Assembly (NCBI RefSeq): GCF_003018115.1
Contig: NZ_CP027457.1
Source: Escherichia coli
GTDB lineage: Bacteria; Pseudomonadota; Gammaproteobacteria; Enterobacterales; Enterobacteriaceae
Reading direction: 5' to 3' (one strand)
Length of the DNA: 64,000 nt
This document shows positions 60,201 through 64,000 of the stretch, piece after piece. The number at the start of each line of letters is the position of its first letter. Positions within the stretch are counted from its first letter, which is position 1. A program made the position numbers.

Positions 60201-63200
60201 AAAGGCGGGCGCTTAATTGTTGAAAAAGATGGGATTGCCGTCTTTGCCGCTATCGAAAAGGGAGGATTACTGGAGGTTAAAGACGGGGGATTAGCATTTG
60301 CGGTAGATCAGAAAGCAGGCGGTGCTATTAAAGCAAGCACGCGGGTCATGGAGGTATTCGGAACAAACCGTCTCGGTCAGTTCGAAATCAAGAATGGTAT
60401 TGCTAACAATATGCTGTTGGAAAACGGCGGAAGTTTGCGAGTTGAAGAAAATGACTTCGCTTATAATACTACTGTAGATAGTGGCGGCTTACTGGAGGTT
60501 ATGGATGGCGGGACTGCAACTGGCGTTGATAAAAAAGCAGGCGGAAAATTAATTGTCTCAACGAATGCGCTGGAAGTGAGTGGTACAAACAGTAAAGGCC
60601 AATTTAGTATAAAAGATGGTGTGTCAAAAAATTATGAACTGGATGATGGTTCTGGGCTTATTGTTATGGAGGACACGCAGGCCATTGACACTATCCTCGA
60701 TGAGCATGCCACTATGCAATCGCTGGGAAAGGATACTGGTACGAGAGTGCAGGCAAATGCGGTATATGATCTCGGTCGATCAGATCAGAATGGAAGTATA
60801 ACGTATTCCTCTAAAGCCATCTCTGAAAATATGGTTATCAACAATGGCCGCGCTAATGTCTGGGCTGGCACAATGGTTAACGTTTCAGTCAGAGGGAATG
60901 ATGGCATTCTTGAGGTCATGAAGCCGCAAATAAATTATGCACCCGCTATGTTGGTGGGTAAGGTAGTGGTTTCTGAGGGCGCTTCTTTTAGAACGCATGG
61001 TGCCGTGGATACCAGCAAAGCGGATGTTTCGCTCGAAAATAGCGCATGGACCATCATTGCCGATATCACTACGACGAACCAAAACACCCGCCTTAACTTA
61101 GCCAACCTTGCGATGTCTGGCGCAAATGTGATTATGATGGATGAGCCAGTGACTCGTTCATCTGTGACGGCAAGTGCGGAAAATTTCACTACGTTGACCA
61201 CCAATACCCTGTCGGGAAACGGCAATTTTTATATGCGTACCGATATGGCGAATCATCAGAGCGATCAGCTCAACGTCACCGGTCAGGCAACAGGTGATTT
61301 CAAAATATTCGTGACGGACACCGGTGCCAGCCCGGCAGCAGGAGATAGCCTTACACTGGTAACAACGGGCGGCGGTGATGCTGCATTTACGTTGGGCAAT
61401 GCCGGAGGCGTTGTTGATATCGGTACGTATGAATATACCTTGCTGGATAATGGCAACCATAGCTGGAGTTTGGCAGAGAATCGCGCGCAAATTACCCCTT
61501 CAACCACTGATGTGCTGAATATGGCGGCCGCACAACCGCTGGTATTTGATGCAGAACTGGACACCGTGCGTGAGCGTCTTGGTAGCGTAAAAGGCGTTAG
61601 TTACGATACGGCGATGTGGAGTTCGGCAATTAACACCCGCAACAACGTGACCACTGATGCGGGAGCTGGTTTTGAGCAAACATTGACGGGCCTGACGCTC
61701 GGTATCGATAGCCGTTTCTCCCGTGAAGAAAGCAGTACAATTCGCGGCTTGTTCTTTGGTTACTCTCATTCTGATATTGGTTTTGATCGCGGCGGAAAAG
61801 GTAATATCGATAGCTATACCCTGGGGGCTTATGCCGGTTGGGAGCATCAGAACGGTGCCTATGTTGATGGAGTGCTGAAAGTTGACCGTTTTGCCAACAC
61901 CATCCATGGCAAGATGAGTAATGGGGCAACAGCGTTTGGCGATTACAGTAGTAACGGCGCAGGTGCTCATGTCGAGAGCGGGTTCCGTTGGGTTGACGGA
62001 TTGTGGAGTGTTAGACCCTATCTCGCCTTTACCGGCTTTACCACAGATGGTCAGGACTACACGTTATCAAACGGCATGCGCGCGGATGTGGGAAATACCC
62101 GGATATTACGCGCTGAAGCGGGAACGGCGGTAAGCTATCACATGGACCTGCAAAACGGTACGACGCTGGAACCCTGGCTGAAAGCCGCCGTGCGTCAGGA
62201 ATACGCCGATTCTAACCAGGTGAAAGTTAATGACGATGGCAAATTTAATAATGATGTGGCTGGAACCCGTGGCGTTTATCAGGCTGGGATAAGGTCATCG
62301 TTTACCCCGACGTTAAGCGGTCATTTGTCAGTCAGCTATGGCAATGGCGCAGGGGTAGAATCGCCGTGGAATACCCAGGCTGGTGTGGTCTGGACGTTCT
62401 GATAACAGACAATAAACAGGCCGTGATGTGTCGCGGTCTGTTTATCGAATTAAATGCAGATATAAAAAAACCAACCTTTACGGTTGGTTTTTTTTGGGAT
62501 TTTTGGTCGCACGAGAGTAGTTTAATTGAACGTGTAACTTAATGATTTAAAAGAATGAGTCTGATTCAACTTTTAAGCCGTATAACCAAACGTATAGCTA
62601 AATTTATTTGCTGAAAAAATGTACAATTTAGAGTCAGATTTTCCCAGATGTTTAATTTATAAAACGAAGCTGGCGGCTGTTCTCTGATATGTGGATCCCC
62701 ATATCTGGAACCCTACCGGAATTTTTTTCCGGTTACCCTTTAATCAGGCTGGTGGGCTTTACCTGTTCGGTAGGTATGATCATTATGATCATACCTTTCG
62801 CCCCAATGGGAGGTAAAAGCGCCAACTGGACGGTTAAACCGTCTTTTTGTCACATCGTGTCACTGGTTGTCACTCTCCGTCACGATGTCCGCTCGCCTGG
62901 CTGTAAATCAAACTACGAAATTTTCGTAGTTGTGAGTAAGCCCCAAAATATGGGGATTACTCTTACTACCCAAACTACGGGTAGTTTCCGTAGTTTCATA
63001 GTCGAGTTGCAGATCTGCAACTCCCCCACCAGCCAGCGCAATTTTGCGCTTTGCTTTAAGTTCAGCGAGTTACAGCGCCGACTTCCTCAAATTGAGGTTG
63101 CCGGAAATATCAACCAGTTACGAGGCTCAAAATTGAGCCGCCTTTAAATCAACACGTTACCGCCGTAACCGCTCCGGCTTCTTCCAGTTGTACGTAATTT

Positions 63201-64000
63201 TCTCTTTCTCCCTGTACATCTCTACACGGCGATTGTAGGCCAGCATTTCAAGAACGCGGATCCGTATGTCGCGCATATCAACGCCATTAAGTTCTATACC
63301 ATCACGGCGCATCACCTCCACCACTACACGCACATAATTATCTGCGGTCATGCTGTCCGGCTGCGTGGCCTGTTCGTCAACCTGCTGGCTGATTCCGGCG
63401 ACGCGGCGGATTAATCCCAGTATTTCGGCTTCTGTCATTGTGCCCCCATCGCGCTGGTGAAGAAAACAAGCTCAGATTTTTTGTAAAGAATCTGTCACGC
63501 TAAAAGATGTCGAACAAAAAACAACCTTCTTCATCATCTTTTTTACATCAAAGCAATTAAAAACAATCACTTACGAACATGATGATGATGACGATAAAAT
63601 CAAAAAAATGCGTTTTTTTCCGCGCCGCCCGCCCCGTGTTCAGGCCCACCCCACCAGGAGGACCCGCAAAAAAGGCGGCTGGTGCCGCCTTGTTGTCATA
63701 GTGAATCGGTACCGCCTGATTTGACCATACCGCGATAATCCAGAGCTGCCACACCTGCATCAATACGGACTTTCCAGGCCACGCCGTCAACGATAAAACC
63801 TTCCTGCTGTTCAAGGTAAGGCTCGTCATTGCCATCAAGATAAGCCACCTCGATTGTGTCCGTTCCCTGTGCGGAAAGCATGTACCATTGTTTTTCGCTG
63901 ATATCATCAAGGCGGGGATCGACGATGATATCAAGTAGCTTGTGGTACGGGTTAAAGATCCCGCTGTTTTTATCAGCCCCGAAAGGTGCGGTTGAGTTAA

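Follow-up and report, generated by a model that had tools for sequence, protein, structure and literature searches.

Two open reading frames (ORFs) at the end of a 64-kb stretch of Escherichia coli DNA (contig NZ_CP027457.1; hereafter the window) match no gene that strain K-12 carries at this locus, which raises the question of what they encode and what kind of element brought them there. We examined the part of the window that belongs to this element (positions 62518 to 64000, the last 1.5 kb of an inserted island) and conclude, with a probability of roughly 85%, that it is the integrase-distal end of a ∼9.9-kb island integrated at proL, a phage satellite of the Gram-negative phage-inducible chromosomal island (PICI) type. 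On this reading the segment holds the 3' end of a capsid gene, a lambda-type cos site, a 93-amino-acid (93-aa) last gene, and a noncoding tail. The element is an ordinary representative of a known class of mobile element.

Insertion at proL and boundaries of the island

The full island was read from a copy in E. coli strain OkiPb01682 (locus L001), found by a megablast search of positions 62400 to 64000 against complete E. coli genomes. Positions 62504 to 64000 were 100% identical to this copy, and all ten differences fell in the yejO terminator region. In L001, the whole island occupies positions 20119 to 30015, with ∼9.9 kb between the two attachment (att) copies, and is flanked by yejO on one side and by tRNA-Pro (proL) and yejM on the other. 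The corresponding site in K-12 is empty: the yejO terminator directly adjoins proL, with no insert. The window follows K-12 through a 17-nucleotide (nt) copy of the tRNA 3' end (positions 62501 to 62517) and diverges afterwards. Taken together, the empty site in K-12, the divergence past the 17-mer, and the intact tRNA at the other end indicate that the element integrated at the 3' end of proL.

Alignment with K-12 and L001 identifies the 17-mer (minus strand, TTTGGTC-GCACGAGAG) as the att core: it repeats, in displaced form, the 3' end of tRNA-Pro (proL) and marks where the island meets the chromosome next to yejO. The displaced fragment lacks one acceptor-stem G; the intact tRNA ends in the same 17-mer plus one G (L001 30013 to 30030). 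Deletions in the displaced fragment, termed tRNA fragment damage, have been reported as characteristic of PICIs inserted at tRNA-Pro (PMC10111431), and the one-base deletion observed here matches this type of damage. No tRNA was found between positions 58000 and 64000, the intact proL lying beyond the window end.

These boundaries bear out an initial annotation of the window, which had placed both ORFs inside a putative inserted element: the sequence diverges past the 17-nt tRNA copy, and the full island is present in OkiPb01682. The comparison of base composition with core genes that it had proposed points the same way, with a G+C content of 37 to 52% in the island part and 52 to 58% in the ccm genes. 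Moreover, K-12 has neither ORF at this locus, where yejO runs into proL, and homology to YejM or other core proteins, named beforehand as the finding that would overturn this view, was not found.

Gene content of the island

All 13 annotated genes of L001 lie on one strand. Counted from the tRNA, they encode a tyrosine integrase, a 76-aa hypothetical protein, a small helix-turn-helix (HTH) protein, a frameshifted product, an Icd-like protein, two hypothetical proteins, a 99-aa DUF4222 protein, a RepA-family helicase, an 85-aa hypothetical protein, a PerC homolog (L001 23838 to 24110), a 629-aa fusion of a ClpP-like prohead protease and a major capsid protein, and, last, the 93-aa hypothetical protein. 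Scans with Pfam, PHROGs, and NCBIfam were consistent with these names. The 413-aa integrase, beside the tRNA, is of the tyrosine type (Phage_integrase and Arm-DNA-bind_3), and the helicase matched AAA_25 (E = 6e-44) and the primase-like phrog_906. The HTH protein (68 aa, two genes downstream of int) matched excisionase/regulator PHROGs at 1e-7. The DUF4222 protein (L001 25965 to 26264) carries RGD at residues 20 to 22 and fits the published description of RgdR, a regulator of the locus of enterocyte effacement (ECs1581; 99 aa, RGD at residues 20 to 22, CFT073 ortholog c1493; PMC3378721), which has been described as common to all E. coli PICIs (PMC6092414).

The features, cos sites, and capsid genes of E. 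coli PICIs have been described previously (PMC6092414, PMC6739421, PMC10111431). Gram-negative PICIs are about 10 to 20 kb long, with an integrase at one end, flanking att repeats, genes in one direction without lysis, tail, or immunity modules, and a cos, a pac, or terS through which a helper can package them. The island has a length of 9.9 kb, a 17-nt flanking repeat, unidirectional genes, and, judged by its sequence, a lambda-type cosQ/cosN/cosB as the putative means of helper packaging. The class is further described as having an AlpA-type regulator next to int and its own replication protein (pri-rep) ahead of an iteron origin; the candidates for these two proteins in the island are the HTH protein and the RepA-family helicase. 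Annotation and Pfam/PHROG scans of the full island revealed no lysis, tail, terminase, or phage immunity genes. The same annotation and scans found neither the genes of P4-like satellites (psu, delta, sid, and the alpha primase-helicase) nor a P2-type cos; the island shares with those satellites only a P4-type integrase and the Icd-like gene, and its cos is of the lambda type.

The capsid gene

Both ORFs exist as first described, and neither is a chance ORF. The partial one lies on the minus strand, with its stop codon at positions 63696 to 63698, and remains open to the window end at 64000. It is identical at 100 of 100 positions to residues 530 to 629 of the annotated 629-aa protein (L001 21299 to 23188). 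Positions 63696 to 64000 thus hold the C-terminal 100 codons and the stop of the protease/major capsid fusion, within its HK97-fold capsid domain, and the rest of the gene lies beyond the window. In the complete protein, Pfam CLP_protease covers residues 41 to 173 and Phage_capsid_4 covers residues 330 to 623, and the NCBIfam model of the fusion family, NF045540, scored 890 bits against a curated cutoff of 475. The initial annotation had treated this ORF as candidate cargo or a regulatory gene of the element; it is instead a structural head gene.

Over its full length, the fusion is 51 to 55% identical to the protease/scaffold/capsid proteins of Stx2a (Shiga toxin 2a) phages, VT1-Sakai, CP-1639, mEp460, and cdtI. 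The satellite version was present in 143 of 5,426 complete E. coli genomes and was kept at an identity of at least 95% in 140 of these 143, which therefore marks it as a distinct conserved lineage rather than a decaying phage gene. Relative to all three aligned phage homologs, about 35 residues of a Pro/Ala-rich linker after the protease domain are missing (alignment columns 210 to 244). Directly past the capsid gene, on the same strand, lies a hairpin resembling an intrinsic terminator (positions 63668 to 63689; GGCGGC-ACCA-GCCGCC followed by six T's), which we read from the sequence and which the consensus scan did not list. Both ORFs had been credited with their own terminator; this holds for the capsid gene but only loosely for the 93-aa gene, since the hairpin that follows the latter (GGCTCAATTTTGAGCC, at about positions 63125 to 63140) has no T-run.

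A cos site between the two ORFs

The space between the two ORFs holds a cos site, which the initial annotation did not mention. Past the capsid terminator, the minus strand carries, in order, GCGGGTCCTCCTGGTGGGGTGGGCCTGAACACG, GGGCGGGCGGCG, and CGGAAAAAAACGC. The first two of these align with cosQ and cosN of phage cdtI, whose record begins at GGGCGGGAGCGT, and of lambda (GGGCGGCGACCT). The cosQ-like region (minus strand, positions 63635 to 63667) has one substitution relative to an Stx2a phage and is close to that of cdtI; it is followed by the cosN-like 12-mer (minus strand, positions 63623 to 63634) and by a cosB-like region (minus strand, positions 63470 to 63622) similar to the noncoding stretch upstream of terS, the gene of the small terminase subunit (TerS), in VT1-Sakai and Stx2a phages. 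In all, about 200 nt (roughly positions 63471 to 63672) are 84 to 86% identical to the noncoding sequence that immediately precedes terS in VT1-Sakai and several Stx2a phages. Two inverted GATGATGA elements within the cosB-like region (minus strand, positions 63528 to 63543 and 63576 to 63591) are conserved in the Stx2a phage and are candidate TerS-binding sites. In the alignment with an Stx2a phage, the ATG of the 93-aa gene lies no more than 4 nt from where the phage has its terS ATG; the island thus has a cosB of the helper type, with the 93-aa gene at the terS position. We looked for a second cos site in the tail and found none.

On sequence grounds, this cos is homologous to that of lambdoid phages with a head and terminase module of the VT1-Sakai/Stx2a/mEp460 type, and it would be the best explanation of how the element moves.

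The 93-aa gene

The 93-aa gene (minus strand, positions 63157 to 63438) encodes a protein of 11.1 kDa and pI 9.1, with an acidic N-terminal half, a basic C-terminal third, and three predicted helices. Pairwise dN/dS ratios among six islands ranged from 0.15 to 0.34, and both the length and the C-terminus (Y.WKKPERLRR) of the protein are preserved down to 43% identity; we therefore regard it as a real gene under purifying selection. It occurs in 1,090 of 5,426 complete E. coli genomes, in up to four copies each, and its product is 84% identical to that of the last gene of EcCICFT073.

All E. coli satellites that we examined have the 93-aa gene as their last gene, whether they are PICIs of the EcCICFT073 type, capsid-forming PICIs (cf-PICIs), or PICIs embedded in a helper. 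The sampled contexts include an O157 island beside phoQ, a cf-PICI in which it begins 13 nt past terL (the gene of the large terminase subunit, TerL), a PICI inside a prophage portal gene, islands beside allC and near rpoD, and an island with a 43%-identical homolog and unrelated late genes. The initial annotation had listed the gene as candidate cargo or a regulatory gene; this constancy does not fit variable cargo. Across 80 IMG/VR loci, the preceding gene encoded a cf-PICI TerL in 23, a Nu1-like TerS in 32, an Rpp-like protein in 12, the capsid fusion in 6, and a c1501-like protein in 6. The gap between the 93-aa gene and the TerL or TerS gene was <40 nt in 29 loci, which suggests cotranscription with packaging genes. 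Further, an inverted cos abuts the start of the 93-aa gene in 38 IMG/VR loci, and a forward cos lies about 200 nt upstream in 7. Homology between islands begins 13 nt before its ATG and stops 9 nt past its stop codon.

As a separate observation, most EcCICFT073-like islands carry terS or rpp between two cos sites that are inverted relative to each other (for instance, at positions 2556 and 3312 of L008, and in 38 of the 57 IMG/VR loci with a lambda-type cos, L018 to L097), the inverted one being that which abuts the 93-aa start.

The family has a narrow range, with hardly any members outside E. coli-like genomes. A large protein database held 974 close relatives, and those listed were all named hypothetical. 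Among 1.8 billion cluster representatives, 36 clusters matched, mostly close or frameshifted variants, and two were ankyrin-repeat proteins. The protein matched phrog_1561, a PHROG without assigned function, over its full length, and its PHROG matches comprised two such families only. Searches returned no Pfam, NCBIfam, or PADLOC family, no PDB or fold match, and no tblastn match in 50,697 phage records.

Three candidate identities were rejected. The ankyrin-like similarity of residues 20 to 56 is limited to one repeat-like unit and is too weak to support an assignment. The protein is not RgdR: it has 93 aa and no RGD at residues 20 to 22, and its counterpart is the last gene of the CFT073 island; the DUF4222 neighbor fits that description. 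Its position past cos raised the idea of Rpp or a truncated TerS, proteins of 144 to 153 aa defined by a winged-HTH domain homologous to lambda Nu1. The hhalign probability was 0.1 against CFT073 RppA and Stx2a-phage TerS, and a sequence search of the PDB gave no Rpp or TerS chain among the matches listed. In the packaging module of the cf-PICI EcCIEDL933, loss of "hypothetical gene 1792" severely reduced transfer (bioRxiv 10.1101/2022.09.08.507074); the preprint text gives no coordinates, and this gene could be neither matched to nor distinguished from the 93-aa gene.

The noncoding tail

Between the 93-aa gene and the att core lies a noncoding tail of 639 nt (positions 62518 to 63156), composed of palindromes and of blocks common to the tails of other satellites. 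It yielded no conserved ORF, no Rfam family, and no match in phage genomes. The sole match of the Rfam scan was a subthreshold OrzO-P on the yejO terminator, and a 152-aa plus-strand ORF (positions 62689 to 63147) was not conserved in other tails and was treated as spurious.

Six satellites, which together occupy five insertion sites, share a conserved block of ∼110 nt in their tails (positions 62690 to 62800). At its core is an invariant 15-mer, AATCAGGCTGGTGGG, with a Chi site, GCTGGTGG (plus strand, positions 62748 to 62755). The block also contains a hairpin, ACCGGAA-TTTTT-TTCCGGT, and two palindromes, ATGTGGATCCCCATAT and AGGTATGATCAT-T-ATGATCATACCT (the latter at positions 62772 to 62796). 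RNAalifold predicted only short local hairpins in it, with a covariation term of −0.05 and no convincing RNA structure. The 15-mer recurs in L008 (3930 to 3944), L009 (6615 to 6629), L010 (6784 to 6798), L011 (6837 to 6851), and L012 (6458 to 6472); in six of six loci it lies 225 to 267 bp from the adjacent chromosomal gene, and its distance to the 93-aa gene varies from 176 to 556 nt.

Among 37 distinct IMG/VR tails, the 15-mer was present in 28 and Chi had the same orientation in 32. Orientation governs the recognition of Chi by RecBCD, and the tail Chi would suit RecBCD travelling from the cos/93-aa side towards att. The 9.9-kb island has 9 Chi sites, and the core sequence of the window (62.5 kb) has 17; the second Chi site of the tail lies on the minus strand (positions 63026 to 63033). 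The other PICI loci that we fetched had about one Chi per kb, and the 8 to 9 kb of cdtI and mEp460 examined had none to two.

The remaining tail features are short repeats. The 12-mer AAGCCGTATAAC (positions 62575 to 62586) has an inverted copy at the opposite island end, where it lies between int and the tRNA (L001 29833 to 29844), and is a candidate integrase-binding site. Four GTCAC motifs (positions 62849 to 62883) with an exact 10-bp spacing, one helical turn, are found in this island type only and may form a protein-binding array; the pattern occurred once in the window and in none of 100 shuffles. Palindromes built on AAACTACG/CGTAGTTT lie at positions 62907 to 62931 and 62965 to 62994, and a perfect 20-nt palindrome, GAGTTGCAGATCTGCAACTC, lies at positions 63004 to 63023. 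The window has three exact copies of AAACTACG, all parts of palindromes within 90 nt of the tail (positions 62907 to 62996). The palindrome AACTACGAAA-T-TTTCGTAGTT is repeated just downstream of int in the full island (L001 28525 to 28536). The presence of AAACTACG palindromes at both island ends suggests operator sites for an island regulator.

Proposed packaging by a helper phage

The arrangement of cos and capsid gene leads us to propose a mechanism that we hold to be somewhat better than an even bet. A helper phage with a head module of the VT1-Sakai/Stx2a/mEp460 type would induce the island, and its TerS and TerL would recognize the phage-like cosB and cut cosN. If the phage-like cosB is usable by the helper terminase, no Rpp or island terminase would be needed. 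The island DNA would then be packaged into heads with a contribution from the diverged protease-scaffold-capsid protein, which may take part in head assembly or disturb it. By analogy with the capsid homolog Ccm of SaPIbov5, the linker-shortened fusion may alter head size.

It is important to note that several observations weigh against parts of this reading. The cosN of the island is one base (a G) shorter than that of the closest phage, an Stx2a phage, which could impair cutting. In a studied E. coli PICI, transfer reportedly does not depend on the capsid genes (PMC10111431, citing PMC6092414), and the heads that package EcCICFT073 are of full size; size redirection by the fusion is therefore an analogy only. 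In the backbone, the HTH protein matched Phage_AlpA (E = 0.003, 17.8 bits) below the cutoff of 21. As for the 93-aa gene, when the EcCICFT073 genes downstream of ori were expressed singly, lambda was blocked by rppA only (PMC6739421), and the occurrence of the 93-aa gene with four unrelated packaging systems disfavors a specific contact with one terminase.

PICI-type satellites move virulence regulators (PerC and RgdR) and defense genes among pathogenic E. coli and interfere with helper phages. The subtype described here shares the cos of Shiga-toxin phages and carries a diverged copy of their capsid fusion; it appears to be matched to their head and packaging module and could thus affect how efficiently these phages spread.

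Role of the 93-aa protein

For the 93-aa protein, we tentatively favor, at odds below even, a small nucleic-acid-binding accessory of the late/packaging operon that acts on the terminal DNA of the island itself. This terminal DNA would be the cos-proximal end and the conserved tail, one arm of attP once the island is excised.

Its closest competitor is a role as accessory or host-directed cargo, with the protein serving as a small regulator, as PerC and RgdR do, or as an antiphage factor; genes of this sort are known from the 3' ends of E. coli PICIs. The gene behaves as a discrete module, its family is narrow, PICIs do carry PerC and RgdR (PMC3378721), and the 3' end of PICIs has been described as a hotspot for immune systems (PMC11364771). 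Cargo varies, however, and the 93-aa gene does not: all satellites examined, whatever their class or insertion site, had it in last place. It also has no PADLOC match and is often joined to the terminase operon by a gap of <40 nt, and its counterpart is not among the EcCICFT073 genes that block lambda (PMC6739421). We consider host-directed cargo unlikely.

Less probable still is that the protein assists recombination at att as a directionality or architectural factor. On the excised circle, the order would be 93-aa gene, tail, attP, and int; the protein is small and basic, inverted 12-mers lie on either side of att, and the conserved tail block keeps its fixed distance from the junction in six islands at 176 to 556 nt from the 93-aa gene. 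On the other side, the gene is found with integrases of at least five site specificities, the small, putatively AlpA-like HTH protein near int is the expected excision factor, and Pfam and NCBIfam scans gave no excisionase-family signature in the 93-aa protein.

On a more speculative reading, the 93-aa protein and the conserved Chi-bearing tail may make up an unrecognized "end module" common to E. coli PICIs, cf-PICIs, and helper-embedded PICIs. Such a module might protect or process the cos-proximal DNA end or couple packaging to reintegration, a notion to which we give little weight; for example, RecBCD would be attenuated at a correctly oriented Chi about 0.9 to 1.9 kb from the end. If this were true, the end module would be a satellite-specific need for spread, whatever the helper. 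One complete E. coli genome in five carries the 93-aa gene, as does each satellite class examined, which makes the gene a well-defined small experimental target.

Comparison with known systems and class of the element

Of the known systems closest to the island, EcCICFT073 is the prototype Gram-negative PICI of E. coli (PMC6092414, PMC6739421). Both are small integrative islands transcribed in one direction, with int, a replication protein, PerC, a capsid homolog, a lambda-type cos followed by the 93-aa last gene, and a noncoding tail with the Chi-containing block. EcCICFT073 differs in having lambda gpE/gpD-type capsid and decoration genes in place of the protease/scaffold/capsid fusion and in being integrated beside phoQ rather than at proL. 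It further has two mutually inverted cos sites and an Rpp that retargets the helper TerS to a nonphage cosB, which it needs because its own cosB is unlike that of the phage (PMC6739421); the island here has a single cos with a phage-like cosB and no Rpp or TerS.

SaPIbov5, a cos-type pathogenicity island of Staphylococcus aureus (PMC8569155, PMC5052747), likewise combines the cos of its helper with a diverged copy of the helper capsid protein, Ccm, and lacks its own terminase. Its sequence and host are unrelated, and size redirection by Ccm is experimental, whereas here it would follow from the 35-residue linker deletion. The cf-PICIs, such as EcCIEDL933, share the backbone family, the 93-aa last gene directly past terL, and their own capsid protein and protease. 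The head and packaging modules of VT1-Sakai, Stx2a phages, mEp460, and cdtI resemble the island in the capsid fusion, and those of VT1-Sakai and the Stx2a phages also in cosQ/cosN/cosB; in these lambdoid phages, however, cos is followed by terS, terL, a head-tail adaptor gene, and the portal gene, whereas in the island the 93-aa gene comes next. Our literature search found no paper describing a PICI with a protease/capsid fusion and a cos of the Stx-phage type.

The phage-type capsid fusion and cos could instead be the remains of a full phage, with the 93-aa ORF as a leftover phage gene in a decayed lambdoid prophage. RefSeq and IMG/VR class such regions as prophage-like, and the frameshifted gene in L001 indicates that the element may be partly decayed. 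Yet the layout is a compact 10 kb (int, HTH protein, DUF4222 protein, RepA helicase, PerC, one head gene, cos, and the 93-aa gene) without genes for lysis, tails, terminase, or immunity. The capsid gene is intact and, for all its divergence from the phage copies, highly conserved among the genomes that carry it, and the 93-aa gene has no homolog in the phage records but a close one at the end of a proven PICI. We therefore regard a decayed prophage as very improbable. The idea that the island is a cf-PICI, building its own heads and taking only tails from a helper, would account for its protease and major capsid protein and for the 93-aa gene being last in cf-PICIs as well, but it is the least credible of all, since the full island lacks the portal, head-tail connectors, HNH protein, TerS, and TerL that define cf-PICIs (bioRxiv 10.1101/2022.09.08.507074; complete in L010), and its cos belongs to the type of the presumed helper and not to an island terminase.

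For annotation, the gain from the PICI reading is that the satellite end becomes a capsid gene, a cos site, and a conserved last gene, neither a defective prophage nor cargo.

Neighboring genes

Upstream of the island, the window carries ccmH, narP, and then yejO (positions 59811 to 62402), which is an intact 863-aa autotransporter ORF here, is split by IS5 in K-12, and has an internal stop in OkiPb01682. In the intergenic region between ccmH and narP (positions 58687 to 58723), Rfam gave a subthreshold match to naRNA4 (38 bits versus a gathering score of 59.5), which is probably a repeat of the repetitive extragenic palindromic type.

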